Part shown: piece by piece, positions 3,836-59,375 of the stretch
Position numbering within the stretch: the first letter of the stretch is position 1
How the letters are laid out: every line of letters begins with the position of its first letter
DNA from: Torpedo marmorata
Lineage: Eukaryota
Direction of reading: 5' to 3'
DNA: 64,000 nucleotides
Assembly (NCBI GenBank): GCA_977017645.1
Contig: OZ360224.1
Location: 30,628,001-30,692,000 of the forward strand
Program-made: the position numbers and the translations under genes
The notes under the pieces: model-generated
The model's input: only the letters and a program-made list of their open reading frames with translations
Told to the model about the DNA's origin: nothing
Database searches by the model: none

Positions 3836-4016
3836 TCAGGATGTGCCCTGCCGCTTCTGCTGCTGGGCTCTTATGTATTCTAGCCGCTTCTTACATTCTT
3901 GATAGTATGTAGATAAGCTTTTGTTTTCTTCCAAAAGTTTCTTATGTTCTTGAACCAGTCGGGAGGTATTCTGTTGATCTTTTTCATCCTGGTCCAGTTC
4001 TGCTATTAATTCTTGC
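3836..4016 (-). CDS. MAP3K7: MAP3K7/TAK1 terminal coding exon (TAB2/TAB3-binding C-terminal coiled coil)
   Basis: Translates (K)[59 protein letters not shown], near-identical to the vertebrate TAK1 C-terminus; acceptor ttacag at 4017-4022; TGA at 3836-3838. Confidence 0.98.
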
Positions 4017-4529
4017 CTGTAATTTGCATCAATTTTTAAAATGTTACCTAACTTTGCACATGGTAACACCGGACTACAAAATATGCTCTGAATTAATGAG
4101 AGAGGATGCAGATGAAATTTACTGGGATGATATCAGGGAGAACATTCCAGAGTTTAGGATCTCAGCGACAGGAAATAAATGATTTGGAGGCATGGAAGAG
4201 GTCTGTCTGGTGCAGCACAAATATACCAGTCTACAGAGGAAGGCAAAGCCGTGAAGGTATTTCTCAAATAAAGACAAGAATTTCAAAATTGAGGGTTTGC
4301 TCAACCAGGTAAGCACGCTCAGGGTGAAGAACAAACAGAACTTTGTTTGGAAATAGGACCTATGAAAGTGGAAACAAGATGATTTCAACTTCATTCTCAG
4401 CTCATCATTCTCTCACCTGAAATTTCACTATACTCCCTTCAATTATTGAGTCCAGAGAGATACTGCATGTCTTTCAGACCACTGAGACCATGCTGAATCC
4501 TTTGAGCAGTATAGAGGATGTAGAAGTTC

Positions 4530-9918: not shown

Positions 9919-12900
9919 AATAGACAATAGACAATAGGAGCTGGAGTAGGCCCTTCGGCCCGTCGAGCCAGCACCGCCATTTTACAGATCATGGCTGATC
10001 ACTACTATCAGTACCCTTTACCAGCCTTATCGCCATAACCCTTAACTCCTCTGCCCACTAGAGTCTTATCTAACTCTCTTTTGAACATAATCAGCGAATC
10101 TGCCTCTACCACCCTCTGTGGCAGAGCATTCCACAGATTCACACTTCTCTGGGTAAAAAAATTTTTCCTCATCTCCGTCCTAAAGGGCCTTCCCTGTATT
10201 CTTAAACTATGCCCTCTAGTCCTCGTCTCTCCCATCATTGGGAACAAGTAATCTGACTTCACCCTGTCTATCCCCTTGATAATTTTGTATACCTCAATCA
10301 TGTCCCCCCTCATCCTTGTAAACTCCATCGGATATAAGTCCAGTTTTTCTAACCTTTCAGCATATGTCAACCCTGCCATCCCTGGAACTAACCTTGTAAA
10401 TCTGCGCTGCACACCCTCTATAGCTAGTATGTCCTTCCTCAAACTTGGAGACCAGAACTGGACGCAATACTCCAGGTGGGGTCTCACCAGGGCCCTGTAC
10501 AACTGCAGAAGGGCGTCTCTGCTCCTATACTCCAATCCCCTCTTTATGAAAGCCAACATGCCATTTGCCTTCTTCACAGCTTTCTGAACCTGCATGTTAG
10601 CCTTCAGTGACCGGTGAACAAGTACACCCAGATCCATCTGCACTTCCCCACTCCCTAGCTTGTCTCCATTTAAATAATACTCAGCCTTCCTATTACTGCC
10701 CCCAAAATGGATAACCTCACATTTGCTCACATTGAACTTCATCTTCCATTCTTCAGCCCACTCCCCCAACCTGTCCAAGTCCCTCTGCATTTTCCTGACA
10801 TCCTCTTCACACTTTACACCGCCACCCAGTTTAGTGTCATCTGCAAATTTGCTCATGTTATTAATAATCCCATCATCCAAATCATTTACATAAATGACAA
10901 ACAACGGAGGACCCAAAACCGATCCCTGCGGCACTCCACTCGTCACATCCTGCCATCCTGAAAAAGACCCGCTTACCCCAACCCTTTGTTTCCTATTTCT
11001 TAACCAACTTCCTATCCATGTCAGCACCTTACCTTCAATACCATGCTCCCTGATCTTGCCCACTAGTCTCCCGTGCGGTACCTTATCAAAGGCCTTCTGG
11101 AAGTCGAAATACACCACATCCACTGGCTCTCCCAAGTCCACCCTTTTTGTCACATCTTCAAAAAATTCCAGAAGGTTAGTCAAGCATGACTTACCCTTAA
11201 GGAATCCATGCTGACTAGCCCTTATACTATTTTTTCTGTCTAAGTGTTCTGCTATTACTCCTTTTATGATAGATTCCAATATCTTCCCCACCACTGACGT
11301 CAGGCTGACCGGTCTATAATTTCCCGTTTTCTCCCTCCCTCCCTTCTTAAAAAGCGGCACGACATCAGCCACTCTCCAATCCACAGGGACCTCCCCCGAA
11401 TCTATGGAGCTTTGGAAAATGTCGACCAGTGCCTCCACAATTTCCAGAGCAACCTCTTTAAGCACCCTGGGATGCAGCCCATCAGGCCCTGGGGATTTAT
11501 CAGCCCTCAGTCCCAACAATTTACTCACAACCTCCTGCTTCTGGATCCGAATATCTATCAGATTCCCTACTTCCCCAGGAAAGTTCCCCAAGTCTCTTGA
11601 TACTGCATGACCACTACCCCCTAACTGACCATAACCAATATCCTCCTTGGTGAAGACAGATGCAAAGTACTTGTTAAATTCCTCAGCCATTTCCTTGTTT
11701 CCAGTAATAATTCCACCCTTTTCCAATCTTAATGGCCCAATTTTAGACCGAACCAATTTCTTCCTCTTCACATATTTAAAAAAGCTTTTTCTATCCTCTA
11801 TTATATTACTTGCTAATTTCCTCTCGTACTTCATTTTCCCCTCTCGTATGACTTTCTTAGTTACCCTCTGATGCTCTTTGAAGGTTTCCCAATCCTCTAG
11901 CTTCCCACTCTGCTTCGCTATCTTATATTTACTCCCTTTGGACTTGATAATGCCCTTGATTTCATTAGTTAGCCACGGCTGCCATTTGCATCTCCTTGTG
12001 CCTTTCCTCCACTTTGGAATGAATTTGTCCTGAATCCTGTGAAAAATGTCCAAAAATACCTGCCATTTTTCCCCAGTTGTCCTCCCAGCTAGTGTATCTT
12101 TCCATTTTATTTTGGCTAGCTCCTCCCTCATAGCTGCATAATCCCCTTTATTTAACCTCAGTATAGATGCTTCCGACTTCCTTTCTTTTTCCCTTTCCAA
12201 TTGCAAATCAAAAGTAACCATACCATGGTCACTATTCCCTAATGGCACCCCTACTTCGAGGTCACTAATTAACTCTGCGTCGCTGCACAGCACCAAGTCC
12301 AGAATCGACTTCCCTCTGGTAGGTTCCTCCACTAGCTGCTCCATGAATGTGTCTCGTAGACATTCTATAAACTCACTCTCTTGTTTTCCTGCCCCCATCT
12401 GATTTTCCCAGTCCACCTTCATGTTGAAGTCCCCCATAACTACCGTATTGCTACCACTTTGACATGCCACTCTTAATTCCTGATTTATACTACTTCCTAT
12501 ATCTGAGCTACTTTTTGGAGGCCTGTAAATGACCCCCATTATGGTCTTCATGCCTTTGCAATTTCTTAATTCAATCCAAACAGACTCTACCCCACCTGTT
12601 TCAATGTCTTTCCTTTCAAACGCCTGAACTTCATTACTTACCAACAGAGCTACCCCACCACCTCTTCCTAACTTTCGGTCCTTTCTGTAGGACGTGTACC
12701 CTGGAACATTTATTTCCCAATCCTGTCCCTCCTGCAGCCATGTCTCCGTAACTCCGATAATGTCATAACCTCCCATTGCCATTTGCGCCTCAAGCTCATC
12801 CATTTTATTCCTTACACTCCGGGCATTCATATACAATACCTTGATACCATATCTCCCTTCTTCCTCCACCTTTGTTCCTGATGCACTTGCCCCTACTCTC

Positions 12901-13018
12901 CTATCACTTTTAGTTCCCTTTTTCCTTATGGTTTCACCGTCTATCGGATCCACCCCTATATTCACTCTCCTATCTGCTTCCCTATCAGTCCCGTTCCCTT
13001 CCCCCTGCCAAATTAGTT
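9919..13018 (-). mobile_element. Young CR1 LINE, 5'-truncated, with uninterrupted ORF2 (APE endonuclease + reverse transcriptase)
   Basis: About 1000 open codons (stop at 10008): YMNARS, GVTETWL, GDFN, SDH (endonuclease); PQGSVLGP, FADD (RT); short 3' UTR and (TATTGTC)n tail at 9919-9936. Confidence 0.95.
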
Positions 13019-15360
13019 CCGTCTTGTAGTGAGATTCAGGGTTGATCTTGTAAAAGATCACTTCCCTGCGTAAACCCCACACCTTTAATTTCTTTAACAC
13101 TCCAATCTATCCCGTGTATATTCAGTGATTGAGCCTCCGTAGCCCTCTTCATTAATGAACTCCAAAGTTTCATTACCCTCTGCGTGAAGAAATTTCACCT
13201 CATCTCAGTCCTGAACATCAGTTTACATGGTGGGTCTCTGCCAATTACACACATTCAATTGTATTTACCACACTGCATCAGATTTTCAAGCACAGGTACA
13301 TTAACCCATTGTTAATGACCTGAAGCTGCATTGATAAGAGGTCATTCCAAAACCCCAGTGTCTCTTGCATATTGATGCTACACTTAATTCACCTTAAAAG
13401 AGTAAAAATTCAGTCAATTGATCCACCATTTGTATAGGCCCATGACCAATTGAAACCACTTACTGGTCTGATTACTTTCAGCTGGTGTAATATTTGAACT
13501 CAATTTAAATTCAAATTAGTTTACTTCAGTAATCTTATGGCCCTTGACCTGTCAATAATTGCATGAATATCGTTAATGAATGCAACAACAATCAGTATTT
13601 ATCTGGTATTGTCAATATAATAAGCTATCTCAAGGCACTTCACTGATTTGATACATAAAAATCTTGACTAAAGAGATGGATTTCATGGGAACCCATAAAG
13701 TAGAAAGACAAGAGAGGTTTGAAGCAACTCACAGTTTAGATGCAAAACAACTAAAAACTGGATGGCGAAGGGTGCAGCCATGAAAATTGGTGAAATGCAA
13801 ATGTGTAGTACGGGGAGAGCAGATACCTTGAAAAGTTGGTGGGGAAGGAGGAGTTGCAGAGAAAGAGTGGAATATTGATTTCATTGACGGAGGCCTTCAC
13901 ACTTTGGGCTCTCGTAAAATTTGGGGGATGTCCTTCTTTGTTGCAGCAATAATGAATTACAAAAGATTTTTCTGTTTTCGTGTCGGAGCGCTGCAATGGA
14001 TAATTTCCTCCACCTCAGCTGTAAAACCAATACAGCCTGTCCTCTGAAAGTTCCATTTTACAACTCATTTAGATGCTATGACAGGGATTTGAACTGCCAC
14101 ATGATGGAAAGTCCTGACGTAGAGTTCGGGACAAGCAAACAGGAATGCCTTCACCACCTGATGAGACAAATCTCCCCAAAGTTTTATTCCCTTCTATAGT
14201 TTGCTGAGTAAAAATTTGGATGATATTTGGCAGTTATGCGTCAATTTAGTTAGTGTCAGACACCAAGTGAGAAGAGAATATTTAGCTTTCCGAAGATCAG
14301 TGATCAAATGCAATACACTAAAGAGCTGAAGAAACTCAGCAGGTCATGCAGCATCCATAGGAAGTAAAAGGTGACCAATGTTTCGGGTCTGAGCTCTTCA
14401 TCAAGTCATGCAGCATCCACAGGAAGTAAAAGGTAACCACATTTTGAACCTGAGCCCTTTGTTTAACATGGTCTTGTTTATCTTTCAATAATCAAATGGT
14501 ATTTTACAAAAATCTAGAAGTTTCATACAGATACCAGCTTTTTGCACTTGAATTTCCATCACTAATATGTCAATGAGAAATTAGCAATTTCAATGGATTT
14601 ATCCTTGCAGTACTCCCGAGATAGCTCTGAAAGTATGGGAAGAGAAGCCATTCCTGGTATTTCTCTGCCATGATAAGAAAATAAAAATGTACTTAGGTTA
14701 GAACGATCCCACCCAGCTGAAGGAAGATGTTCTTTCAAAGGCCTCAACTGAGCAGTGGAGGATGAGAAAGAATAGTTTTAACATTCAGAGTCACTTGGGA
14801 TACTATTTTCAACTTCTTCTAGAGCTGTTTTAAGGCAACAACTTATTTGGAGTTGTAGGAAAGACAGGCATGGATTTGGGAGACAACAACAAAGTGAGGT
14901 TGGAAATTACAGTGAAAATAGTGTTGGTATAAAGGGAGAAAGGACAGAAATTAGATACAAGATCAAGTGTAGCTAAGGAAAACCCAATTTTGGCTTCGTG
15001 GGCTAATGGGAGGGAAGCAATGAAAATATATTTTTTCCTGATGAAGGGTTTTGGCCCATCTATTGGCTTCCATGGATGCTGCCTGACACATTGAGTTCCT
15101 CCAGCCTTTTGTGTGTTGAAAAGATATTCTCCTTTTTTTGACAAAAATCACACATTAACATCTTGCACTTGTTGTTGGAAGTGTGTGGGAAAAGGAGTGT
15201 AAAGGGATGAAGAAATAGTTTGTAATGGCGTAGTGATGCCAGAAGTTGGTTTTATTCAGCAGATCATGGAAAGCATCTCTCCATGGATTCTGCCTAACCC
15301 ACCGAGTCCCTCCAGCTTCTCTTTGCTCAAACAATAGCAGGAGTAAACCACGAGGCTTCA

Positions 15361-30046: not shown

Positions 30047-31071
30047 TACTTCCAACACAAGTAATACACTATGTTCTTTTTAGGTTGATTGGAAAGGAAA
30101 ATTAAAAAATGTAGAGGCAGTGCACACATTAATACCTTTCTCAAAGAGACTTCAATAAAATAGAATTATAATTGTTCTTTATAGAAACTAAATTTAAAAA
30201 ATATTAAAACACAAAGAATTTGCAATTTGAGCAATATGTCCAGACAGAGTTCAAACATTCAGACACAAAATAATTTGCACCCTTCAACTTGGCATTGTCT
30301 CAGAATAACCAGTTAGATCACAAAACAACTAGGTTCTTCAAATTTTCTTTTGAAAGCAACGAATTGTTACAAAAAAGGCACTGAAAGCATTCATCTGCTT
30401 GTTTTGTATACATTGCAAAATTTGTTAAAAAGCAAAAACAAAAGTTGTCTTTGAATAAATGTAGAACTGTCACTACAGTATTCAAGACAGCTCAAGAACT
30501 TAACATGATCTGTGAATAGATTTCTTGCTTTCAAAGCACAAAGTCTCAATGTGACTCACAGATATGCAAAAACACACATGATAAACGCAAACACAAAAGT
30601 CATGCAAGTGCTGAAACAACACACACACAATAATTTATTTATTGTGCAAGCATAGTGGTCAAAAGCTCAATTATCAAAGATCAAAGGTGAAGGAAAATAC
30701 TTTTTGCTCCAGAATAACATAGCAACAGATTAAATAATTAATGACATCAATGCATGAAACTGTTGGACCTGCCATATTAGTTCACTTTACACATTGATTC
30801 CTTTTTATGAGAATTGAGTGCCACTGGCAAGACTTGTATTTAGTGCCCATTCCTACATGGCCTTGAGAAAGCAGTGGTGAGCCACCTTCGTGAACTACTT
30901 AGTGAGTTCCGGAATTGTGATCCATCTATGATTAAGGAATAGCGATGTATTTCCATGGCAGGACTATGTACACTTTATGGGGACATCTCCATGTGGCGGT
31001 GCACCTGTGGACCTGCTATGATAGTCCTTTTTTAGTATGAAAGGTGTCCACATGTGCACAAGTAAATGCAG

Positions 31072-31465
31072 TGTAAGGGTTAAATTGAATTGTAAGTTGA
31101 AAGCAGCTAGAATATTGTTTACGAATTCCATGAGTATGTCTCCATAGTAACAGTTTTTAGCCAAGGTCTTTTTTCTGTGAGTTTAATATAAACAAGTTAG
31201 TTTTGAATTTGCATTTGTACTGTGTAGAACCAGAGCAAAATGAAGACGGTCCGGATAATTTCTTTAACCGTTCGTTTGCAAGTATTAACGTATTAATATT
31301 TTATTGGCCGTTTATTAACTGTTTTAAGTATAGTTTAATTGTTTTAATAGTTCTAATAAACAGTAAAAAACTCAATGCTACTTTAGAACGGACTATTCGT
31401 TTAACAAGTCAAACAACGATGTCTGCATGCTGCCCAAGCGATTATAAAGGGAAATAGTCACAATA
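31072..31465 (+). repeat. 5' LTR of BEL copy 1
   Basis: Starts TGTAAGGG; direct repeat of 39118-39528 (roughly 95% by eye). Confidence 0.93.
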
Positions 31466-31655
31466 TTTTAGTCAAAGAAAATTAGGACTATTGACTCGTA
31501 AATCAATAGAAGACTATTTAGTCAAAATAATTTGGATTATTGACTCATTAGTCAATAAAATGGACAATTGACTCATTAGTCAATAGAAGATAGATCTTCA
31601 AGCAAGACTATTTAGTCAAATGAATGGACTATTGACTCGTTAGTCAATAGATGAC
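31466..31655 (+). repeat. Tandem array of short palindromic units in the leader of BEL copy 1
   Basis: Four copies of approx. CTATTGACTC(A/G)TTAGTCAATAG plus three TTTAGTCAAA. Confidence 0.85.
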
Positions 31656-31785
31656 GGAATTGAAGACATAGAAAGTTGGAAATTGGATTTGGAAGAGAAG
31701 ACTGGATCGATTGGGCTCTGTTTAGAGCAGATCGATAAGGAGGCACAAACATCAACAACCAAGACCATTGAAGAAGCGGTAAGCC

Positions 31786-34081
31786 CTCTTGGAAATAGCG
31801 ATCATAGTATGATTGAATTTTTCATACAGATGGAAGGTGAAATAGTTAGATCTAAAACTAATGTATTATGCTTAAACAGGGGAGACTATCACAGGATGAG
31901 GGAGGAATTGGTCAGCGTGGACTGGGAGCACAGGCTAGTTGGTAGAACAGTTGAGGAACAGTGGAAGATTTACAAGGAGATTTTTCACAATGTTCAACAA
32001 AAATATATTCCAGTTAAGAATAAGGGCAGCAAGAGAGGGAAGAGTCAGCCGTGGTTAACTAAGGAAATAAAGGAGAGTATAAAATTAAAAGCTCAGGTGT
32101 ACAAAGTTGCAAAGAGTAGTAGGAAACTGGAAGATTGGGAAAACTTTAAAAAACAACAAGGAACAACAAAGTGGGTAATAAGAAAGGGGAGAAAGGATTA
32201 TGAAGGTAAATTGGCACAAAATATAAAAACAGATAGCAAAAATTTTTATAAATATATAAAACAGAAGAGGGTGGCTAGAGTTAACATAGGACCCTTGGAA
32301 GATGAGAAGGGGAAATTGATATTGAATAATGAGGAAATGGCCGAGGCCTTGAACAAATATTTTGTGTCAGTCTTCACGGTGGAAGACACGTCCAGCATGC
32401 CAAAGAGTGGAGATAGGGATGCGAATGTTGGTGGAGGCCTTGATAAAATAGTTGTTACAAAGGAGATAGTGATGAACAAACTAATGGGACTAAAGGCGGA
32501 CAAATCCCCTGGTCCTGATGAAATGCATCCCAGGGTTCTGAGGGAAATGGCAGAAGTTATAGTCGATGCATTGGTGGTCATATACCAAAATTCTCTGGAT
32601 TCTGGGCAAGTCCCGGCAGATTGGAAGACAGCAAATGTCACGCCACTTTTTAAGAAGGGAGGTAGACAGAAGACTGGGAACTACTGGCCAATTAGCTTAA
32701 CTTCTGTAGTTGGGAAAATGATTGAAGCTGTCATTAAGGATGAAATAGTGAGACATTTAGAATGAAAGGGTTCAATCAGGCAGACGCAGTATGGGTTTAG
32801 GAAGGGCAGATCTTGTTTGTCAAACTTGTTACAGTTCTTTGAGGACATAATGGGTGCGGTAGATAGAGGGGAACAGGTTGATGTTGTATATTTGGATTTC
32901 CAGAAAGCGTTTGATAAGGTGCCGCACAAGAGACTTATCAGTAAGTTACAGATGAATGGAGTCCAGGGAAGTATATTGGCATGGATTGAGGATTGGTTGT
33001 CTGACAGGAGGCAGAGAGTCGGGATAAATGGGTGTTTTTCTGATTGGCAGACAGTGGTAAGTGGGGTGCCTCAGGGGTCGGTGCTGGGCCAACAACTGTT
33101 CATCATTTACATTGATGATTTGGAGGAGGGGACAAATTGTGGTGTAGCCAAGTTTGCGGATGATACTAAATTGAGTGAAAGAGCAAATTATACTGAGGAT
33201 GTGGAGATGCTGCAGAGGGATATAGTTAAGTTAGGTGAGTGGGCAAAGGTCTGGCAGATGGAGTACATTCAGTAAGTGCGAGGTTATCTACTTTGGCAAG
33301 AAAATAAAAGAGCAGAGTATTATTTAAATGGTGAAAAACTGCAGCATGCTGTAGTGCAGAAGGACTTGGGAGTGCTTGTGCACGAATCGCAAAAGGTTGG
33401 GTTGCAGGTGCAGCAGGTTATTAAGAAGGTAAATGGAATGTTGGCCTTCATTGCTAGAGGAATTGAATTCAGGAGCGAGGAGGTAATGTTGCAACTGTAC
33501 AAGGTACTGGTGAGACTGCACCTGGAGTACTGTGTGCAGTTCTGGTCTCCATATTTGAGGAAGGATATACTGGCCTTGGAGGCAGTCCAGAGGAGGTTCA
33601 CTAGGTTGATCCCCGAGATGAAGGGGTTGACTTATGATGAAAGATTAAATCGTCTGGGATTATACTCGCTCGAGTTCAGAAGAATGAGAGGAGATCTTAT
33701 AGAAACATATAGAATTATGAAGGGGATGGATAGGAAGAGGTAGGAAGGTTTTTTTCACTTGCGGGTGAGACCAAAACTGGGGGACACAGCCTCAAGATTC
33801 GGGGGAGTAGAGTTAGGACAGAGATGAGGAAAAACAGTTTTTCCCAAAGAGTGGTGAATTTGTGGAATTCTCTACCCAGGGAAGCGGTTGAGGCTGCTTC
33901 ATTGAACATATTTAAGGTTCAGTTGGATAGATTTTTACATAAAAAAGGAATTAGGGGATATGGGGAAAGGGCAGGTAGGTGGAGTTAGGTCATTGATCAG
34001 ATCAGCCATGATCTTATTGAATGGCGGAGCAGGCTCGATGGGCCGGTTGGCCTACTCCTGTTCCTAATTTCTTATGTTCTT
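31786..34081 (+). mobile_element. 5'-truncated CR1 LINE nested in BEL copy 1
   Basis: ORF pieces homologous to the CR1 at 9919-13018 (PLGNSDH, PQGSVLG, FADD) with a few stops and frameshifts; tail TTCTTATGTTCTT. Confidence 0.95.
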
Positions 34082-34483
34082 AGCCATTGGAAGTTCCTTC
34101 TGTGTGTTTATTACAAATTAGAACACAGTTTGGTGCAATTGCCTATGAGGACTGTTTTGGTTCTGGAGAGATGGGTGTGCATGTTTGATGTCTGAGTGCG
34201 ACAAACGACACAATGGAAGAAACAGAATCTGTAGCTGCTAAGGAGCTATGTGTCGAGAAGATGAAGAAAACAGAACTTAAAGATTAATTGCAAAGGCAGC
34301 AATTAGATAAAGGGAAATAAAGCGACTCTTCAAGCAAGACTGAGGGAGGATATAGATAAGAAAAGGATTACAGTTGTTAGGGATACACATCCCACAAAAT
34401 TACTGCAAAAACCATTAATAGAATTTGAGACCGACCTCTCACTAGTGGCTGAAGCTATATCACAAGATGGTGGTGTGGAGGAT

Positions 34484-35345
34484 TATTACGTGCTCCCAGT
34501 TCATTTTCAATTGAGTGAGACTGTCACTTTAAGAGAACAAATCAAGCTGCAAGTTTGGGAGTTTGACTGTGATTTGACAGACTAGGACAGCGTGTACTAA
34601 ATTGGATACATCTGAATAGAGAGGAAGTGGCCCTGGAAAACACAGGTGCAGAGACCATGTGACCAACAGATTCAAGACACAGGACACAGTTTGCTCAGGG
34701 GCCATTTTAAGGAAGCAGCACTTGGAGAAGCATCTCTTTAAAGGGATACTGTGCTGAAGTGGCCTCGTGTGGTAATAGACAATTTGTCTGATTTCTCTCT
34801 GTAAGAAGAATGAGTTTACCCCACCGTGGCCAAAGGAATGGTCACTTTTGAAGGGGGATTAGTGTGCAACACTGTGACCAGAAGGGAAGGTCACTATTTC
34901 GGCTGACCCACGAAAGGGTTCTGGAAGCTTTGTGAAAGCCACTCGCTTCGTTTCCCCAAGGAAAAGAGGAGTTTTGATTGCCACTCGTCTGAAAAGGACA
35001 TTTCTTTGGAAGCACCTCGACAAGGATTTCGTGAGTTTACAACAGTCTGTCACCCCGGTCTCTCCCACCTACTCCGTGATTACTTCTTTGATCAATTTAA
35101 GAGTCTTCGTGTCAACACTGGATTTTCTGAGACTGAACTTTGGACTAACATTCCAGAATTGTGCCTGAGCTGTAGTGGCTTGGGGTATTCCACACACCCA
35201 TAAGTATATTCGCGCATAGTTGGGGGTTAAGTTGATAAGTTTAGATAAATTAGATAAGGTGTTATATTATTGGTAATTAATAATTAAAAATATTATTTTA
35301 AATATAACACTGTCTTGGCTAATTTCTATTGCTGCTGTCGTAACA
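34484..35345. mobile_element. Solo LTR (probably Gypsy-type) nested in the BEL gag
   Basis: Inverted termini TATTACG (from TGTTACG)...CGTAACA; 4-bp TSD GGAT (34480-34483, 35346-35349). Confidence 0.8.
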
Positions 35346-35349
35346 GGAT

Positions 35350-37774
35350 GAACAATCCAAAATAGAGACATGGTCAGAGATTAAAGCAACACCTGACGTA
35401 CAGGACCTAATAGGACCTAGCGATAGTGCGTCAAATACTTCCAGCAGGAGAAGTAAGATGAGCTCTAGAGCAGGCTCCAGAGTTTCAAGAACTGAATCTA
35501 TGCGTTTAAAAATTCAAGCAGACGCGGCAGCTCTTAAAGTGGAAAGGCAATGAATGCTTCAGTATGAATTGGACTTAAAAGATAAGGAGGAGCTGCTAAG
35601 AATGGAGGAAGTTCAGCTAAAAAAGCAAAAGAAGCAACTGGAACTGGACAGAAAAATTGCTGTTAATGAGGCCAAGTCACAGGCACTAGAAGGCTCAGTG
35701 GTATTTAGTGCTCGAAGTAAAGTACCAAAAGCATCAAGTTTTGATGAAGGACTTCAGAAAAAGAAAATATTGAATACCAAAGCTGAGCCAGTGCTACGAT
35801 ATCCATACGGGCTTGGTCCTGAAATCGACAGGTCTAGACAAAGGGCTGAGCCAGTGATAGAATCATAATATATGCTTGGTCCTGTACCAGGCAGGTTACG
35901 GCACGGGGCTGAGCCAGGGCCGCGGATGCGAGATGTGCAAGATCCCGGATTAACCGGGTTGATGCAAGGAGCCAGAGTTCAAACCCCAATGATGGCCACA
36001 TTGGACAAAGATGGGAGCCAAATGCCATCTCTTATAGGGTCATACCAAGCGCTCCCGGCAAGTATTAGAAATCTGGGTGAACAAAGTAACGTACGCCCAG
36101 GCACAACAAAACAAGATGAGATAGCTGCATCATTAATGTAGTTACATACTCTCTCCTTTCTGCCCAAGAGAGAGATACCATATTTTTATGGTGACCCCCT
36201 TGAATTCCACTCGTTTATGAAAAGCTTTGAACGCAGTATTGAAATTAAGTGTCAAAGCCAGGAGGATTGTTTATATTTTTTGCAGCAGTTCACAAGAGTA
36301 CCACCACAAGAACTCGTAAAGAGTTGCCAACATATGAATCCTGATGTAGGATTCAAATAGGCTAAGTGGTTACTAGAGAAGCATTTTGGCGACAAGTATA
36401 GAATTTCTAGAGCTTATTTACAGAAGACTCTTTCATGGTCGTTAATAAGACCAGAGGACAAGAATGGTTTACAAGCTTACGCCCTCTTTCTAAGAGGATG
36501 TTGCAACGTCATGACGGAGATTGGCCACCTTCAAGAGCTTGACATACCTCAGAATATGGTAAACATTGTAGATAAATTACCCAAATGGATGAGAGAATTA
36601 TGGAGAAGTCAGGTTGTTGAATACCAAAGAAGAAACTACGTGACAGCTACTTTTAAGTATTTGGTGGAGTTCATTGAAGGACAAGTGGACGTTGTCACAG
36701 ATCCAGTGTATTGAATTAAAGGTACTCAAACAGTGAGTAAAGAAGTTGAAAAGTCCAAATCGTATTCTCTACCAAAATTGAAGAAAAGTACATTTGCCAC
36801 CTCTCTGACAGTGGAATTAAGGAAAAGGAAAGTTTGCCTGCTGAGAAGAAATGTTTGTTCTGTAATAATAAGCACGATTTGGAAAAGTGTGCACAGATGG
36901 AAAAAACGCATAGTGAGAAAATCGCTTTTTTGAAGAAAAATGGAGTATGTTTTGGCTGTCTGTGTAAAGGACACATCAGCAAAAACTGCAAAAAGCGACT
37001 CAGCTGTGATATATGTAGTCAAAAACATCCTAAGATACTACATATCTTCAAGGAAAAGAATACGGAAAAGGAACAAACGTCAAGGGAAGAAGCAGATGAA
37101 AACAGTGCTGACGCTTCAGTATTGACAAGTGGTCTTACTGGGGCCGGTGCAGATAACTGCAAACTCTCAATAGTGCCTGTACAAGTTAAGGCCAAGAATG
37201 GGAATGCAACGGTATGTACACATTCATTTCTTGACCCAGGAAGCACTGCGGGGCTTATGAAAAGGCTTAATCTTGAAGGAAAAAAGTCAAGGATTCCATT
37301 GAAAACCATGGGACAAGAAAAGGTCATTGAAACTAACATGGTTTCAGGGTTAGATGTTGCTGGAATACACAGCGACGATTTTTGTGATCTTCCAGGCATA
37401 TATACACAGAAGACTATGCCTGTGCATAAAGGAAACATCCCACATCAAAGTGATGTGGATCAGTGGTCATATCTGAGAAAGGTTTATATACCGGAAAATA
37501 GATCTGAGATAGAGATGCTAATTGGTTTAAATGAACCAAAGAAGTAATTCCGAGTGTGAGAGATGGACCTTACGCTATCAAAACTATGCTTGGATGGACA
37601 ATCAATGGACCATCAGAAAGATAGAATGATATTGCTCAGAAGCAGTCAACAACAGGTGTCAATATGATATCTGTTGTGAAACTCAACGAACCATTGAAAC
37701 AACCGTTCAAGACAGACTTTCCTGAATGCCTTGATAACAATCAAAAACCTTCAAAAGAATACAAACAGTTCTAA
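35350..37774 (+). pseudogene. BEL gag-protease region, disrupted by stops and frameshifts
   Basis: [78 protein letters not shown]. Confidence 0.9.
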
Positions 37775-38225
37775 GAAAATCTTACTGACGAAAATAAATC
37801 AAGAGCATCTAAACCAGTAAAGAAGAAATTGTTTTCATCAAAAATGGATGAAAATGAAGTATTAGAAGATGCTGCAAATACTGCTGGTGATTATTCTTGC
37901 GAAGCAAAATCTGGGGCAGGAATGAAACAAATGTCTGGGAACAAATCTGAAAGTAGCTTTTGTAGCCCAGATGCACCAGCAAACAAGATCAATGCAGCAT
38001 GTTTTAAAATGAGCGAACACAGAAAATTGTGCTGATGGTATAAAGGAGCATTTCATTGACAATATGGTGCAACTGCCTTCAGAGTACAAAATGTTGAAAA
38101 GGAACTTAGAAATATTGGATATTCCAGAAAACAGTGACCAAAAGGGTTTTAACTTTGTACTTGGAAACAAAACTGAATCTGATGATTCTTCAGTTTTGAA
38201 AGTAAACAAGAGAGAAGATCAGAGA

Positions 38226-38774
38226 GCAGTTGACAAGAATGGAGAATTAATTGTAAATATAATTCGTAAAACCAAGCGGAAGAAAAGAATAACTGCTAAA
38301 GAAATGAATGCAGTTATTGAAGAAAGGGATTTAGCCTTATCAAGATGCATACAGTTGAAAGAGGAGATTCATTTTTTGAAAGAGAACAAGTCATTGTTTA
38401 ATGACACAAAACAACTGACTATGGAAAACAATCAAGAATGTACCTTGAAGACCCAGTTAATAACGATGCAAAAAGAAAGGAATATTACATTTCACCAATG
38501 TAAGAAGGAAGGTGAAAAAATTCAAACATCTCGAGTATACTACAGAAGGGCTGAAAGCAGAGGTACCAATGCATCAAATAACCTTTTTACTCCAAGTCAA
38601 GTTACTAACTTCTCAGAAGATAACAGGAAAATTACTTTCCTATTGAAAGAATTAAATGCAGAGAGGGAGTCTAATAAAAGACTTCAAGATAAATTGTCAG
38701 AAAATGAGACTGAATTGGAAGTTGCAAAATTGGATCCGGAATTACAGGAAAAGACAATAGAAGCCAGAGTGGCT
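38226..38774 (+). pseudogene. Captured, intronless, order-permuted MIPOL1-like coding segment in BEL copy 1
   Basis: KNGELIVNIIRKTKRKKRITAKEMNAVIEERDLALSRC..LTMENNQECTLK..IQTSRVYY followed by TPSQVT..ITFLLKEL..SNKRLQDKL..ELQEKTIEARVA. Both blocks match MIPOL1 as I recall it, but in reversed order. Confidence 0.85.
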
Positions 38775-39117
38775 GTTGATGAGTTTGAGGAACCAATGTC
38801 GTTTGAGTTCTACCTTTTCTATAACCAACTGCAGAAGAGAAAGAAAAAAGGCCCATCTTGTGCCCTCAAGAAAGTGAATACCTTGGAAATTAAGAATCGT
38901 GTTCAAGCACTGGATAGGGCCAGGGCAAAGCGGATTAAGACTAAAAATGGCTTTATGAAACAGACCAATTACCAAAATCTGTCTTTTACGAGAAGTAGAG
39001 AGCTTTAATGATAGACTTTCACTTTCTTTTGAATATTTACCCAATGTATTACTATGTTTGTTTTTTTCTTTATAATGGTAATTATTATTTTTAGATATAA
39101 TAATTAGGGGCCAATAT

Positions 39118-39528
39118 TGTAAGGGTTAAAATGAATTATAAGTTGCAAGCAGCTAGAATATTGTTTACGAATTCCATGAGTATGTCTCCATAGTAACAGT
39201 TTTTAGCCAAGGTCTTTTTTCTGCGTGTTTAATATAAACAAGTTAGTTTTGAATTTGCTTTTGTACTGTGTAGAACCAGAGCAAAATGAAGACGGTCCGG
39301 ATAATTTCTTTGACCGTTCGTTTGCAAGTATTAACGTATTAATATTTTATTGTCCGTTTTATTAACTGTTTTAAGTATAGTTTAATTGTTTTAATAGTTC
39401 TAATAAACAGTGAAAAACTCAATGCTACTTTAGAACGGACTATTCATTTAACGAGTCAAAAAATGACATCTGCATGCTGCCCAAGCGATTATAAAGGGAA
39501 ATAGTCATAAAGGGAAATTGTCGCTACA
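39118..39528 (+). repeat. 3' LTR of BEL copy 1
   Basis: TGT...ACA, preceded by the purine tract and followed by the TSD. Confidence 0.93.
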
Positions 39529-40958
39529 TGCAGTAAATTTTGAAGAGAATAAATAATTCAACCAAGTGCCAGTGATAAGAGTGAGAAAATGTTTTAGGTG
39601 ATAGATATGGTGCCAATCAAGCAAGATGGATATCAATCATCAAATGTCGGAAATGCACTCAAAAAGGTGTGTGAAGAGTATTTAATCTTGTCTCCTTGAG
39701 TTACAAACCTACGAGGAAGATGAACAATTTTAAGAAAATCTTCAGGAAGAGCAAATCCCCCCCCCTCAAATTAATTTGCAACTAAGTCTATGTAAATCAC
39801 CACAACCCACCCCCCCCCCCCCCACCCACCCTCCACCCAATTAAAGTTGCCCAAAGCTTCATATAGGTTTGTAGGCTTCTTAGGATGTCTGGTCATGAAG
39901 GTCATTCTGAGACCAAAGGATCCCCTTAATCTTTTGTTTGCAATTTCCCCAATTCAATTCTAATTTGCATTAAAAGAGGTCAAAATTCAGTTATATTATA
40001 AACTTTGAAGGATTTTCCCAGAATAATACTTGATGTTTAAATTTCAAAAAGGTCTCATTTTTTCCCCACTTATTGATGTTGATGAATTTAGCTCAAATAG
40101 AGTGGTATCAACAGTTTTTGCTAAGAATATAAAATATAGAAAATAGTTATAAAGTTTATAAATCAAATAAAAACCATTAAAGGCTTTGAACGTGAGTAAA
40201 ATACTTTTTAAAATGTAGATTCCCCATTTCAGAGCTCAAGAATCATTGTTCAAATCATTTTGGCTCAGATTCTATGCAAGACTTGTCCTGGAGTCAAATC
40301 CAAATGGTTATTCTCCATGTGTAGCACCTATCATTCAGTAAGTCCTTAACTGAGGGTGGGCAAATGCAAAACCCAGGATAACTTTTGTGCAATTGGTGAA
40401 CACCGGTGGTTCCCTTTGAAACAACGGCCAATGTGACTTAACCCATTATTTCCATTTCTCTTTCATCAGATTCTGTCTGACGTTTGGTGTTTCCATCAAT
40501 TTTGGTTTTGATTTCAGATTAGTAACTGATTCCTTGCTTTAGTTAGTAGTTATTACATTGGCATAAGACGTAGTCTGGAGGATTTGATCCAATTTTTTTT
40601 AAATAATATGTTTCTGTTGTTTCATTTATGCAACCCCACTGCTCTAACTTCTATTTATTCCTCTCCTGCATGACAAAAGTGTTTTAATTCAGTCTTTAAA
40701 ATACAGACACAAGTTACATCACCAAGCAGTGGAAACTTTAGTACTAGAGAGAGACTGGCTGAGTTCAGTCTATTTTGCTGAATAAAATAACTACTACCCT
40801 TTTTCCACTGCATAATGTAGAAACTTACATCAGAAAATTGTTGAGTTTTATGTGGATTCTGCAGCAGTCTCTGTAATTTGGAGCAAGAAGTAAGTCGGAC
40901 ACCATATTTATCAGCAGTTAGCCAGCTAGCTAGCCAGACCAGTAGTTAGAACTGGTAC

Positions 40959-41781: not shown

Positions 41782-41947
41782 CTGTAGTAGCATTCATGAT
41801 TCTGGCCTCCAATTCAGAATAATTGCTGAGGTCAGCACTCAATCTCTTTTCCTCCAGTGTAGCAGCCGCTGATTGAGTTCGCCCTCCAGAAAGACTCTCC
41901 ACACTGCTCCCTCGAGACAGTGGCAGATTTAATCTTGTAGAGTCACC
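41782..41947 (-). CDS. MAP3K7: MAP3K7 coding exon (166 nt)
   Basis: GDSTRLNLPLSRGSSVESLSGGRTQSAAATLEEKRLSADLSNYSELEARIMNATT; ctaacag acceptor, gtaaaa donor. Confidence 0.95.
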
Positions 41948-42409
41948 CTGTTAGAACAACTAAATTTAAGCTGTGTGCTAAAGTGCAGTGTGTTTCTATT
42001 ATTTGCAAATTCTTCAGGAGTGGCATCCTTTGTGTTCACAATGAGCACAAAACTTTGCAAACATACTACTAATGACATCCATCGCAATACTAATTTCACT
42101 AGTCTCTACATAAAAAGGATGCTTTTCAGAAACCGAGCAGGCTTTTAATCAGTACAATACTCCCCTTTCAGTTAATCTTTCCTCTTAAGCTGTGTAATAC
42201 AGTACTCAGTCTCATTTTCAAGAAAAGTCACTGCTTACACATATGAATTTCCCGAGTTTGGAACCTGAGAAATATACAATTTAAAGGAAAGCATTTGCAG
42301 AAATGTTTGATGTGAGGAAATAATTTTAAACAAATTTTACTCACAGATTGGAAAGTTCGCACAATGTTACCAGAACAAAATGCACCAAAACTTTAGCTTC
42401 CTTCTTAAT

Positions 42410-53600: not shown

Positions 53601-54722
53601 TAGGTAGATCCGAGCCTCTTCAACCGAGCGCAGCCACTCCTTGTGTCCATTAGAAAGTGTAACGCGGAGATGCGCGGGATACATCAAGGAAGGTGTAAGA
53701 GCCGTAGGCTTGGTTACTTACCTTAATCGCGGCGTTCCAATGGTCTCAGCGAGGTTCGGAGGAGACACGGAGATTAGTAGGACGTGCTGGGACTATTGAG
53801 TATTCTGCGCATGCGCTAGAGTGCCGATGGGCACATGCGCAGTTGGGAAGTGACGGCAGTATGCGCGGTGGAGTATGTGCAGTTGGAGCATGCGCGAATC
53901 GGGGAAGAAGGAGTATAAAATATGGCGACCAAGGAGGGTGAGTGAGATCGCCATATCTTTCATTGACCGTCAAAAGAATGTTTAATATAACGTTTAAAGG
54001 ACATTTAAAGTAACATTTTAAAGGATCGTTTAAAGAACGTTTAAATGAGTGTTAAAGGAATCGTTTAAAGGAAGTTTATAGACGTTTTGAAGAATCGTTA
54101 TTAAGCATCGTTATCAAGAATTGTTTACATTTCATTAAAGAAGATATTTAAGTTATTGAAGATTGCTACAAGTTATCATGTGTTAATAAACATTTTGAGC
54201 ATATTGGACTTTGTTAGTAAATTAATTGAAACGCGTCAAGAACAAGTATCTCACCTAGCCTCCAAGTGATTATTTGTTGGATTGAAGTCACTATATGTTA
54301 CTCAATGAAAGAATTATTGTTTGGAACAGAAAATTGAAGGAAAGAAGATAGAATAATCTCTCTGTGCTTTGGACTGATATTTAAAATAAAATGGTGGCCA
54401 TCTTGGAAATGCCTCGAGTTAGGGGCAGTTTGTAATCCATATCCATCTGCCATGAATAACAGCCAGAAAGGGATTTAGAGCTTCAAATCTTATAGTAAAG
54501 TGTCCTATAAATAAGTTGGAGAAACCATTTCTGGAAAATCAGCGATATTATTGACGGATGTTGTGGTGGAAACTCGTTTGTGAATAGCAGCACATTACAG
54601 TCATCTGAAGTGGTAGGCATAAGTCTGTGGACTCCTGTGTATCTTTGGCAAGTTAGAACACAGATTGGATTTGCTGCCGCTAGTCCATTGGGGACTGTTG
54701 ATTTGGCTAGTGTTGTGTATGC

Positions 54723-56098
54723 TTTTTTAAAAAAAAAATTTATTTAAAATTTTTAATCACAAGATAGTACATGTTTATAAATTTCAGAAATATCAAAATA
54801 CATGTGATATATTTTCACCCTCCCCTCCCTTCCCCCTCCCTTCCTAACCCTACTACTCTAATAAAAAAAAAGAGAAGGAAAAAAAAGGATAGTGGAGAAT
54901 GTCAATCTAAAAGAAAACAACTATACATTAATTTTATTGTGGAACACAGGTTTGCCAGTCAGACCAGATGGCAAGAGATCTTCAAATCTTTAAACCCACA
55001 GTTTTTATATATGGGCTCCATACCCTCAAAAAGAAATGATATTTATTACTTAAATTATAAGTAATTTTTTCAAGTGGTATGCATGAACGAAGTTCTGCAT
55101 GCCATCTTTCTAACCCTAAATCTACATCAGATTTCCATGTAATAGCAATGCATTTCTTTGAAACAGCCAAAGCAATTTGCAAAAATTCTATTTGGTACAT
55201 ATTTAATCTCATTTTAATACTAATTCTTTTAATATCTCCAAACAGAAATATCATAGGATTCATTGGGAGTGTAATTCTTAATACTTTGTCTGAAAACTTT
55301 TTAACTTTCAACCAAAAAGCATGTATCTTTGGACAAAACCACGTAGAATGTATAAAGGAACTTTCTTCCCTATTACATCTGAAACATAAATCTGATAATC
55401 TCGAGTGAAATTTCTTTAATTTCTTAGGCGTTAAATATAATTGATGCAAAAAATTATATTGTACTAACCTATATCTAACATTAATAATTTTAGTCATACT
55501 TTGTTTACATATTTCTTTCCAATGTTCCTCATCTATTGTTATATTCAAATCTGATTCCCATTTTAATCTTCATTTATGAATTCCTGGTTTAGGCATTTTT
55601 TTCTGTAACAATTTATACATTTGAGAAATAAATTTATTTATACCCCTATTAGTAACTAGTAACTCCAATTCACTTTGCCTTGGTAAAATTAAACTATGAC
55701 CCAACCTTTTAACTAAAAATGCTCTCATTTGATAATAAGCAAAAAGTATTATTTAGTACATTAAACTTCTCTTTCATTCTTTGAAAAGTGATAAATTTAC
55801 TAGCTTCAAAACAATCACTTACTTTTTTAATCCGATTTTGAAACCAAATTTTAAACAAATGATTATCCATAGTAAATGGGATAAGTTTATTTTGATACAA
55901 AGGCATTTTACAAGAAACTAACCCTTTCCCTCCTATCTCCCTATCCACTTTATTCCATATTTCTAACAAATGCTTTAAAATAAGAGAGTGTTTACCTCCT
56001 CTTAATAGCAATTTGGAATTCCATTTATAAATAACTTCTTCTTTTGAATCTTCTCCCATATTATTTAATTCTATTCTAATCCAAGCAGAAGATTTTTC
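54723..56098 (-). mobile_element. 5'-truncated L1 (same family as 48990-50638) inside BEL copy 2; the 5' part of gag is missing at this point
   Basis: Colinear high similarity to about 48990-50340; no TSD found. Confidence 0.9.
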
Positions 56099-57666
56099 TG
56101 ATTTACAAGAAAATTACAATCGAAGAGCTACCTTAAAAGACTTGGTAAATTTTCTTGAACGACAGGTGTACATTGAAACAGATCCAATATATGGAAATAC
56201 CAGAGACAATTCAATGGGAAACAAAGATGAAAAGAGTCCAACTCACAGCCTCATCCGAAATTGAAAAGGAGTACTTTTGCTACTAATGTGTCAGTTATAA
56301 ATAAAGAAAAAGATAAAGTAAATAAGGAAAAGGAAAGTTTGACTAATGAGAAGAGTTGTTTGTTCTGTAAAGGCGGACATACTTTGGAAATGTGTTTACA
56401 GCTGGAAAAGAAGGAACATAATGAGAAGATCGCTTTCTTAAAGGAAAATGGAATATGTTTCAGCTGTCTGTGTAAAGGGCACATCAGTAAAAACTGTAAG
56501 AAGCGACTTAACTCTAACATATGCAATTTGAAACATCCTAGAATGTTGTATATCCATCAAAGAAAGAAGGAATTGGAAAAGGAGCAAACAGAAACAAAGG
56601 AAACAACAGAAAACAATGTTATAACCTCGGTTCAGACAAGTAGTCTGACCGGGGCCGGTACAGATAACTGCAAACTTTCAATAGTGCCTGTACAAGTCAA
56701 GACCAAGAAAAGGGGATGCAACAGTACATACATATGCATTTCTCGACCCAGGCAGTACTGCATCGTTTTGCAAGAAAGGACTAATGAACAAACTTAATAT
56801 TCAAGGAAGAAGGTCAAGAATTATGTTGAAAACCATGGGACAAGAAAAGGTCATTGAAACCAGCATTGTTTCAGGCTTAGAGGTTGCTGGATAGGATGAC
56901 AAAAAATTTTGTGATCTTCCAAGCTTATATACTCAGAAGACTATGCCTGTGCACGAAGGAAACATTCCGCATCAAAATGATTTCCATCATTTGTCTTATC
57001 TGTGGAAGGTTTATTTACCTGAAGTTAACTGAGATAGAAATGCTGATTGGGTCAGATGTGCCAAAGGTTTTGGAACCACTAGAAGTAATACGGAGTAGAG
57101 GGAGTGGACCATACGCTATTAGAACCAAGCTTGGTTGGACAATCAATGGACCACTGGAAAGAAATAATGATATTGCTAAGGAAAAGTTAGCGATAAATAT
57201 TAATAGGATTTTGGTTGTGAAAGTTGATGAGTTAAGGGAAGAGCAAAAGACTGTGAATAAGAAAGTCACTTTTGAAGAAAAGAAAACAGATCAATGTGAA
57301 AATAAATCAAAGGTATTAAAAACAACATTGAAGGAATTATGTTCATCAGAAATGGATGAAAATTAAGTATTAGAAGATGTTGCAAATAATACTAGTGATT
57401 ATTCCTGTGTAATTGAATCAGAGGCAGGAATAAAACAAGTGACTGAGAACAAATTTGAAAGTAGATTTTGTAGTTCAGAGGTTTCAGCAGACAAAGTCCA
57501 TGAAGAAATGTTGCAATGTGATGTAAAACTGGAGAACGCAGAAAATTGTGCTGATGGAATAAAGAAGAATGTGAATGATAATTTAATGCAATTGAATTCA
57601 GAGAACAAAATGTTGAAAAGGGAATTGGAAATATTAGATAATCATGAAAACAGTAAACATAAAGAT

Positions 57667-58103
57667 TTAATTGTAAGTAAAATTCGCAGTCAGAAAGCGG
57701 AAGAAAAGTATGACTGCTGAAGAAATAAATACAGTTATTCAGGAAAGAGATTGAGCATTATCAAAATGTAAAAGATTGGAGGAAGAGATTAATATTTTGA
57801 AAGAGAACAAGTTATTGGTTAATAACACAAAAGTTGATTATAGAAAACAATCAAGAATGTAAATTGAAGGTTCAGCTACTAACAATGCAGAAAGAAAGTG
57901 ATATTGTATTGCAGAAATGTAACAAGCAAGATGAAGAAATTCAAAAATTTCACAGCAGGGTTGACAATAGAAATACTAATGTATCACATGATATTTTCAC
58001 TTCAGATCAAGTTATTAATTTCTCGGAAGGAACTGAGACTGAATTGAAAGTTGCAAAATTTTATTTGGAATTGCAGGAAAAGGTAATAGAAACCAGAGTG
58101 GTT
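57667..58103 (+). pseudogene. Second copy of the permuted MIPOL1-like segment, in BEL copy 2
   Basis: MTAEEINTVIQERD*ALSKCKRLEEE..ENNQECKLK..EEIQKFH|SRVDNR..FTSDQVINFSE..LELQEKVIETRVV, with frameshifts and an internal deletion. Confidence 0.82.
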
Positions 58104-59375
58104 AAAGAGACTCGTTTATTAAAATCGAGAGGATCAGATAATTATTCAAATTCTGGTTCTAAGAGTTTAAATTCTTCACATGAGAAATGGAATACTGAAG
58201 AAAGGAATAAAGTGAAACGACATGCTGAAGAAGTGCCTCGTGTTAAATTCAAAAGAAAAGCTGTATCTATTTTGTCTGAGGAAGATTTGAGGTTTACTGG
58301 TCAACATTCTAACTCAAAGATTCTGGAGATAAAAGAACTTTGATAAATACAAACTGACTTTATGTTGTTGTTGTATACTACACAGGTTACAGACTTTTAT
58401 TGATCCAGAGTTATGGTAAACTCTGGTTTTATGAAGAAAGAAGAATTGTATATTGTTTGAATGTTATATGGTTATTGTTATTTATAAATGATTGTGTAAT
58501 TATTATTTAAGACATTGCGTCTAATTATAATAATTAGGGGCCGGTGTAAGAGCCGTAGGCTTGGTTACTTACCTTAATCGCGGCGTTCCGATGGTCTCAG
58601 CGGGGTTCGGAGGAGACACAGAGATTAGTAGGCCGTGCTGGGACTACTGAGTATTCTGCGCATGCGCTAGAGTGCCGACGGGCGCATGCGCAGTTGGGAA
58701 GTGACGGCAGTATGCGCGGTGGAGTATGCGCAGTGGAGTATGCGCGAATCGGGGAAGAAGGAGTATAAAATATGGCGACCAAGGAGGGTGAGTGAGATCG
58801 CCATATCTTTCATTGACCGTCAAAAGAATGTTTAATATAACGTTTAAAGGACATTTAAAGTAATGTTTTAAAGGATCGTTTAAAGAACGTTTAAATGAGT
58901 GTTAAAGGAATCGTTTAAAGGAAGTTTATAGACGTTTTGAAGAATCGTTATTAAGCATCGTTATCAAGAATAGTTTATATTTCATTAAAGAAGATATTTA
59001 AGTTATTGAAGATTGCTACAAGTCATCATGTGTTAATAAACATTTTGAAGATATTGGACTTTGTTCGTAAATTAATTGAAACGCGTCAAGAACAAGTATC
59101 TCACCTAGCCTCCAAGTGACTATTTGTTGGATTGAAGTCACTATAGAAGGCTTGGAACCACGCTTGTACAACTCTGACATTATTTCTCTGTATTTGGCGC
59201 GCTGCTTCATAATTTCGGGACAGTAATCTTCTACAATCCTGATCTGCTGGCCGCAATAATTGAGTTTCCCTCTTCGACGAGCTTCACGAATCAAAGAATC
59301 CTTTATTTGATAATGATGTAGCCGAAGAATAACCGAGCACGGTCTCTGCTCCAGAGCCGGCTTAGGACTTTTCCT

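Follow-up and report, generated by a model that had tools for sequence, protein, structure and literature searches.

Two copies of one long terminal repeat (LTR) retrotransposon lie in the stretch of the Torpedo marmorata genome analysed here (the window: 64,000 nucleotides (nt), contig OZ360224.1 of assembly GCA_977017645.1, positions 30,628,001 to 30,692,000 of the forward strand). In both copies gag and protease run into host-derived coding sequence, hereafter the cargo. The locus raises the question of whether this cargo was translated together with Gag and protease and, if so, what has kept the frame open. The first-pass annotation of the window had proposed an ancestral Gag-protease-cargo polyprotein in place of pol. 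The present analysis bears this out: replicating lineages carried gag, protease and cargo as one frame, like transducing retroviruses, and natural copies have 488-803 open codons spanning the joins. Selection keeps this frame open, hardly the protein. The explanation we favour, with moderate confidence, is that in this non-autonomous BEL/Pao family the host pieces are kept in one frame because an early stop likely triggers nonsense-mediated decay.

The family is a non-autonomous BEL/Pao LTR retrotransposon whose pol has been replaced by pieces of spliced host mRNAs. Both window copies show the BEL/Pao hallmarks: paired LTRs, a TG start, a 5-bp duplication and a purine tract. Pol-bearing BEL/Pao copies in the 6.2 Gb genome that was searched have single frames of ~2,000 codons and LTR identities of 98-100%, and Pfam finds the DUF1759, Peptidase_A17, DUF5641, reverse transcriptase (RT) and integrase domains in that one frame. 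The gag-protease DNA of copy 1 is 70% and that of copy 2 87% identical to these copies (range 70-88%), and the window copies also share with them the last pol codons and the purine tract. RT, RNase H and the integrase core were absent from all cargo copies examined. Past the 5′ LTR of three copies (L037, L084 and L135) no primer-binding site with a TGG start was evident; a T-rich stretch is common to cargo copies. A pattern search for a pol-bearing relative of the copy 1 backbone gave 35 matches and no helper; among the 20 matches examined, 19 continue into BRCA1 and one into RT, the latter only 71% identical to copy 1.

Exact matches to a motif from the BRCA1 part of the cargo numbered 17,697 in the genome, and those to an Elongin A motif 11,325, with none for either control; such exact-motif counts are floors. 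From 147 loci we retained 104 distinct copies, after dropping 37 (repeat places or at least 97% alike), five members of a single duplicated cluster and one split piece. They comprise 49 copies of group A, 34 of the copy 2 type, 13 of the copy 1 type and eight of subfamily D. Many group A copies had been chosen by protein score, which biases them to open frames; two further samples were chosen by position. Some copies lie in clusters: about 25 near-identical ones with an internal deletion stand at G000:C80, 14.8-16.7 Mb (L011-L030), likely through segmental or tandem amplification, and smaller tandem runs occur at C1, 1.50-1.52 Mb.

The joins were in frame with gag-protease in 80/88, 95/100 and 93/96 measurable cases (of 104; 16, 4 and 8 not measurable). 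The corresponding figures were 24/25, 25/26 and 27/28 in the first position-picked sample and 55/57, 56/56 and 54/56 in the second, which includes tandem near-copies and overlaps the first. These in-frame joins span several distinct breakpoints, and the frame remains open all the way from the protease motif through the Elongin A piece in 14 of 32 position-picked copies. Indels tell the same way: 13 of the 16 shared by at least five copies keep the frame, compared with 35 of 108 private ones (P = 0.0005). Only internal indels enter this count, which superseded a raw binning with edge artefacts. Shared frameshifts are confined to the region near the 3′ end.

Stop codons have been purged as well. 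On the branches of the copy 1 type, the copy 2 type and subfamily D, fixed changes (polarised against the host sequence and group A) comprised 134 nonsynonymous, 58 synonymous and one stop change, where the same mutation spectrum predicts 134.4, 48.1 and 10.5. The one stop is a single-site call, and the number falls to zero when the carriers' whole codons are read; stops as few as observed appeared in 0 of 5,000 shuffles. In 23 position-picked copies the observed numbers were 74, 29 and 0, against 70.8, 25.1 and 7.1 expected. Of the 56 copies in which the frame was followed, 54 close it 72-418 nt upstream of the purine tract, compared with 10-202 nt in eight pol-bearing copies, and the terminating stop differs between subfamilies.

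The amino acid sequence was treated very differently. The pooled ratio of nonsynonymous to synonymous rates (dN/dS) for the cargo on the three branches, corrected for the mutation spectrum, was 0.83 (P = 0.06), and the independent 23-copy sample gave 0.90 for fixed changes and 1.02 when shared ones were included. On the youngest branch it was 0.69 (P = 0.05), with 0.51 for the BRCA1 part (P = 0.045); that sample dropped 25 of 60 rows. Decay controls for the cargo lay at 0.87-1.00. In contrast, gag-protease gave 0.48, 0.58 and 0.20 (P = 0.010, 0.012 and 0.0008). The cargo values replace a first test that was uncorrected for the mutation spectrum. Selection on the cargo for a host function, as in gag-onc fusions, was not detected at a dN/dS of 0.7-1.0. 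Stops are purged, yet the cargo dN/dS is 0.7-1.0; hence selection acts on the open frame and hardly on the protein. The two outcomes that the first-pass annotation had paired, fixed stops or frameshifts and a dN/dS of about 1, came apart: the former are absent before the 3′ end, while dN/dS is near 1.

Several observations weigh against so clean a separation. The length of three shared indels is not divisible by three, and ~200 extra nt behind the stop are tolerated in a sub-lineage of the copy 2 type. The decay control for gag-protease itself gave 0.76 (P = 0.003), which softens the contrast with the cargo. The cargo values are mostly below 1 (0.81, 0.86, 0.83 and 0.69; P = 0.05-0.16), so that weak constraint on the protein is possible. 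Finally, the MIPOL1 piece was found in 30/30 copies picked by the BRCA1 motif and 30/30 picked by the Elongin A motif, whereas pure filler could be lost.

How an open frame without a needed protein could matter to the element may be pictured as follows. The element would make its own Gag and protease and borrow RT and integrase in trans. Host RNAs would likely be captured by template switching inside the particle, as has been described for other LTR elements (PMC5131818). The cargo would then be a disposable tail, cleaved at the protease/RT boundary. Were translation to stop at a distance from the 3′ end, the element RNA would gain a long 3′ untranslated region and be exposed to nonsense-mediated decay; the filter would heed where translation ends, not which protein is made. 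For retroviruses, full-length RNA with a long 3′ untranslated region is reported to be a decay target unless shielded behind the gag stop (PMC2925335), a precedent that may apply here by analogy. A BEL element with a single frame would need no such shield until its pol was replaced.

An alternative is that the cargo protein, chiefly a BRCA1-MIPOL1 core with its coiled coil, slightly aids assembly of the Gag fusion or entry into helper particles. The core is present in all 60 copies picked without reference to MIPOL1, two separately derived subfamilies were reduced to the identical core, and the low youngest-branch values, above all that of the BRCA1 part, point the same way. No proline has been fixed in the MIPOL1 part, though the spectrum predicts few. 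Against this, dN/dS of the MIPOL1 part was 0.85 and 1.12, with 46 residue changes in the copy 2 type, and in-frame deletions affect all three of BRCA1, MIPOL1 and Elongin A. Those of 48 and 81 nt inside MIPOL1 and of 21-132 nt inside BRCA1 have spread, the 48-nt one, in the MIPOL1 coil, being present in 4 of 35 copies. We regard this explanation as unlikely, though worth keeping in play. The suggestion in the first-pass annotation that a retained coiled coil is useful to the element or interferes with host MIPOL1 fares poorly on the same grounds, with cargo dN/dS near the decay controls and deletions in every piece.

The cargo could instead be a spacer that supplies a minimal length of RNA or polyprotein past the protease, needed for activation, particle geometry or packaging, translation included. 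On two occasions it was shortened from 2-3 kb to ~1.1 kb, and in the copies seen the shortening stopped there; moreover, gag and pol form one frame in pol-bearing BEL copies. We consider a spacer quite improbable: cargo length differs almost threefold among successful subfamilies, and a need for RNA length alone leaves the purge of point stops unexplained. Still less probable, to the point of being very doubtful, is an action of the fusion on the host that aids spread, either as a source of silencing RNA or by dominant-negative interference with MIPOL1 or BRCA1. Thousands of sense coding copies of BRCA1, MIPOL1 and Elongin A do make cross-silencing possible, but young copies are only 79-85% identical to the host exons, with no sign that identity is being maintained, the BRCA1 piece falls between the RING and BRCT regions, and the host exons read normally. 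That the frame was luck in one founder and was then copied is scarcely credible: the copies are related and per-copy counts are not independent events, but about seven capture joins and at least eight large deletions are all in frame, as are several new protease-BRCA1 and MIPOL1-Elongin A breakpoints, and the stop deficit on three long separate branches refutes it. Loss of RNA to nonsense-mediated decay after an early stop thus remains the reading that we prefer.

The joins in the window agree in large part with their first description. In copy 1, GPYAIK (37565), the stops at 37622 and 37772, ENKS (37790) and MDENEVLED (37844) do share one frame, and in copy 2 the GWTINGP frame is stop-free from 56881 via ENKSK (57298) to MDEN, with its first stop at 57364. 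Copy 2 has the same fusion, as had been stated, but it exits the protease region earlier, without DFPE..KQF, and terminates with EIKEL and a stop. Besides its two point stops, copy 1 has frame breaks at 37538/9 and 37992/3, the latter within the BRCA1 piece. Its protease motifs are FLDPGST at 37227 and GWTINGP at 37592, and an unrelated stretch interrupts its gag at ~34484-35344. The identity of the cargo had to be corrected: its start, ENKS..MDENEVLED, is BRCA1 and not MIPOL1, and the first description had overlooked Elongin A, IARS1 and NDC80 in addition to BRCA1.

The piece that follows the protease matched BRCA1 in a protein search (E = 2.5e-71; 70% to the Narcine protein, of which it covers aa 201-413). 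The nearest protein matches come from rays, Narcine in the case of BRCA1. The BRCA1 piece consists of four spliced host exons from a single host locus on C61, with 90-100% identity in the least diverged copies. MIPOL1 comes next (E = 1e-63), and Elongin A is third (PF06881, E = 6.7e-16; five spliced host exons on C41). The Elongin A stretches retained by the two window subfamilies do not overlap. Subfamily D adds IARS1 (E = 7.5e-78), NDC80 (E = 2.9e-14) and a piece resembling the Elongin A N-terminus, a weak match (E = 0.049). What is left of the IARS1-NDC80 join forms the tail of copy 1 (86-88% identity), and L274 is an intermediate. The pieces are partial, spliced, in sense orientation and without poly(A), and replace the internal open reading frame. 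Short overlaps occur at the BRCA1-MIPOL1 and Elongin A-IARS1 joins. Joins in L089 and L084 contain short linkers, ~11 nt long between the start of RT and BRCA1 and ~20 nt long between exon D of MIPOL1 and Elongin A. A second exon-split Elongin A-like gene (L170-L171, G000:C25:175.31-175.34 Mb) is 74-77% identical to the cargo and is not the donor.

Two observations concern BRCA1 itself. The start of the host large exon (L212) lacks 9 nt, three residues, that are present in both the cargo and the Narcine protein, so that the cargo preserves the older state. In Narcine BRCA1 isoform X2 (P0022), ~180 N-terminal residues stand where the RING region is expected, perhaps an annotation artefact; we take them to look like retroelement gag.

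The MIPOL1 piece has its exons out of order: part of exon F, then G and H, are followed by B, C and the start of D. The join at 38545/38546 unites the exon H donor with the exon B acceptor exactly, as judged from the host gene mapped on C40. Host exons B to H total 780 nt and give one stop-free frame round the circle. Of 46 group A copies, 27 preserve the host H-B join without a single change, and the genome contains 5,515 exact matches to a 22-letter motif spanning it (control 0). Exons outside the circle were not found in the cargo: the C-terminal exons match the host gene only, and the large upstream exon had a single match among 77 scored candidates. Duplicated exons were not seen at the host MIPOL1 locus, where every exon occurs once within 326 kb of the present assembly. 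Since the remaining capture joins that were examined fall inside exons, as template switching would predict, a chance match to two exon ends is unlikely here. On these features of the sequence, the MIPOL1 piece was likely copied from a circular RNA. AG terminates both of the exons at the back-splice, however, so that linear mRNA with a template switch of 2 nt would yield an identical sequence; such a switch, trans-splicing or an ancestral exon-duplicated allele are conceivable routes to the same join. A bolder proposal is that a co-opted host circular RNA, its coil translated on Gag beside its BRCA1 neighbour, aids assembly or the hijacking of helpers and drove a serial exon-shuffling family of tens of thousands of copies; we hold this to be rather unlikely.

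Four cargo-bearing copies lie in introns of host MIPOL1 (L064, L072 and L079; G000:C40, 64.34-64.50 Mb), and two of them, oppositely oriented, stand on either side of exons E and F. Back-splicing can be promoted by inverted repeats in introns. At L045 (G000:C42:9558001-9567500) a 405-nt unit across the back-splice join is repeated in tandem with 100% identity, in an open frame of 459 codons.

The last integrase codons, which the first-pass annotation had read as a retained protein end, are a different matter. The copy 1 tail does match the C-terminus of pol-bearing copies, RQVRIKTKTG(F/Y)LNRPI(N/T)K(V/I)CLL, with 82% DNA identity at 38930-38987, but RIKTKNGFM and RPITK occupy different frames, and the stop reported directly after REVE does not exist; that frame reads on. 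The cargo frame reaches RIKTK in copy 1 through its own private changes, and in 0 of 14 other copies of the type; the one match flagged among them was to RPILC and not to the integrase motif. Overall the integrase codons are in frame in 15 of 39 measurable copies, most of these behind a stop. In group A the tail is in a frame other than that of the cargo, in the copy 1 type the frame stops within the IARS1-NDC80 remnant, and in the copy 2 type it ends on the pol stop context, with the integrase end gained by the large sub-lineage lying behind that stop. Because the tail is mostly out of frame or behind a stop, and the frame ends near the purine tract, it is best read as cis sequence beside this tract, renewed by recombination.

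Both gag-protease and the 3′ end have been exchanged with pol-bearing copies. In its protease the copy 2 type falls together with young pol-bearing copies (100/99) on a stem of 0.03, compared with ~0.16 for the cargo, so the cargo changed backbone; the trees, built from 34 cargo and 14 pol rows with no more than 12 per group, were compared without a formal clade test. In young copies the integrase end is 96-98% identical to a pol-bearing copy. Coordinates of all parts are collected in the table.

Table. Parts of the two element copies, in window coordinates
Feature	Position	Strand	Remarks
Copy 1, target-site duplication (5 bp)	31067..31071	+	second copy at 39529-39533
Copy 1, 5′ LTR	31072..31463	+	95.7% identity to own 3′ LTR
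Copy 1, gag region	34235..37130	+	BEL/Pao; decayed, several stops; by alignment to L083, Pfam DUF1759 on relatives
Copy 1, aspartic protease and first RT-region codons	37131..37774	+	
Copy 1, BRCA1 mRNA piece	37775..38226	+	one splice join into large exon; 85% to host exons on C61
Copy 1, MIPOL1 exons F (part), G, H	38226..38545	+	spliced
Copy 1, MIPOL1 exons B and C (part)	38546..38775	+	upstream of F-H in host gene
Copy 1, Elongin A remnant	38769..38848	+	89% to host exon on C41
Copy 1, IARS1 and NDC80 remnants	38843..38929	+	86-88% to longer subfamily D pieces
Copy 1, last BEL pol codons (integrase end)	38930..39005	+	outside cargo frame in sibling copies
Copy 1, purine tract preceding 3′ LTR	39100..39117	+	identical in pol-bearing copies
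Copy 1, 3′ LTR	39118..39528	+	
Copy 2, target-site duplication (5 bp)	53689-53693 and 59146-59150		
Copy 2, 5′ LTR	53694..54295	+	96.9% identity to own 3′ LTR
Copy 2, gag end and protease	56126..57240	+	87-88% to young pol-bearing copies
Copy 2, cargo	57241..58343	+	terminates on pol stop context (EL, stop)
Copy 2, BRCA1 part of cargo	57241-57675		
Copy 2, MIPOL1 part of cargo	57663-58112		
Copy 2, Elongin A part of cargo	58100-58321		
Copy 2, 3′ LTR	58545..59145	+	

The MIPOL1 piece of copy 2 also has the permuted exon order, with an 81-nt in-frame deletion. Elsewhere in the window, an open CR1-like frame of 1,032 codons lies at 10008-13106 (-), and a decayed relative of it sits in the copy 1 leader at 31644-33743 (+). 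A LINE-like stretch (54725-56113) replaces or interrupts the 5′ part of gag in copy 2. Exon-like stretches at 3836-4132 (-) and ~41790-41960 (-) presumably resemble MAP3K7/TAK1, a likeness that Pfam and PDB searches did not confirm; if so, both element copies would be antisense in its introns. Pfam searches of nine window frames gave nothing above the cut-off. The element is covered by contigs from four sequencing runs of three studies. One contig of 1,217 nt, from a run that may be RNA, spans 37854-38892; none of this is taken as a sign of expression.

Elements of this general kind are known. In acutely transforming retroviruses, pol is replaced by host coding sequence in gag-onc fusions, a helper is needed, and the host protein is selected. 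The architecture is the same here, whereas the host protein appears not to be the selected function. The plant element Bs1 of maize is reportedly present in low copy. Like the present family, it is an LTR element with several host gene pieces (PMC7264820), and the title of one report mentions a hybrid open reading frame. Non-autonomous Athila elements likewise have open frames under purifying selection and recombination between families; by that account the Athila frames are the element's own genes, unlike the host-derived tail here, which is open without clear amino acid constraint (PMC2410132).

The closest precedents are LTR-mediated retroposition in animals, which includes the mouse 'Super' retrocopy (Tan et al. 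2016, PMC5131818), and pseudogenes derived from circular RNA, such as mouse circRFWD2 (Dong et al. 2016, PMC4897178). The retrocopies of Tan et al., as reported there, are also partial spliced mRNAs that replace part of the internal open reading frame between LTRs, with several parental genes per locus, further non-autonomous rounds and one mosquito BEL case. Short microsimilarity at mid-exon joins is reported for those retrocopies. They differ in being low-copy and, when older, mostly loss-of-function, and the word 'circular' is absent from the main text of that paper; the present family has >17,000 copies and one gag-protease-fused frame measurably held open over long branches. CircRFWD2 shares the non-colinear join at splice sites, the restriction to exons of the circle and the LTR association, in 33-42 copies whose mechanism its authors call mysterious. 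Here the circle piece lies, in frame with gag, in a complete LTR element with target-site duplications, and at least 5,515 copies of the join exist. A search of literature listings found no description of this family; the Bs1 papers and the supplementary files of PMC5131818 and PMC4897178, which lay outside it, may bear on novelty. The kind of element is thus already known through LTR-mediated retroposition, Bs1 and circular RNA pseudogenes; what is new is the scale, the likely circular RNA cargo and the selection on the frame.

For this genome, >17,000 BRCA1-like pieces and thousands of MIPOL1- and Elongin A-like ones will confound annotation and read mapping. Capture by an LTR element followed by mass amplification offers a structural route for the retrotransposition of circular RNA, which Dong et al. 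left open. The family is also a natural experiment that separates selection on an open frame from selection on a protein, in which thousands of dated copies either carry an early stop or lack one. It makes testable the idea that RNA surveillance would force captures to be in frame and bias LTR elements toward multi-gene fusion proteins.

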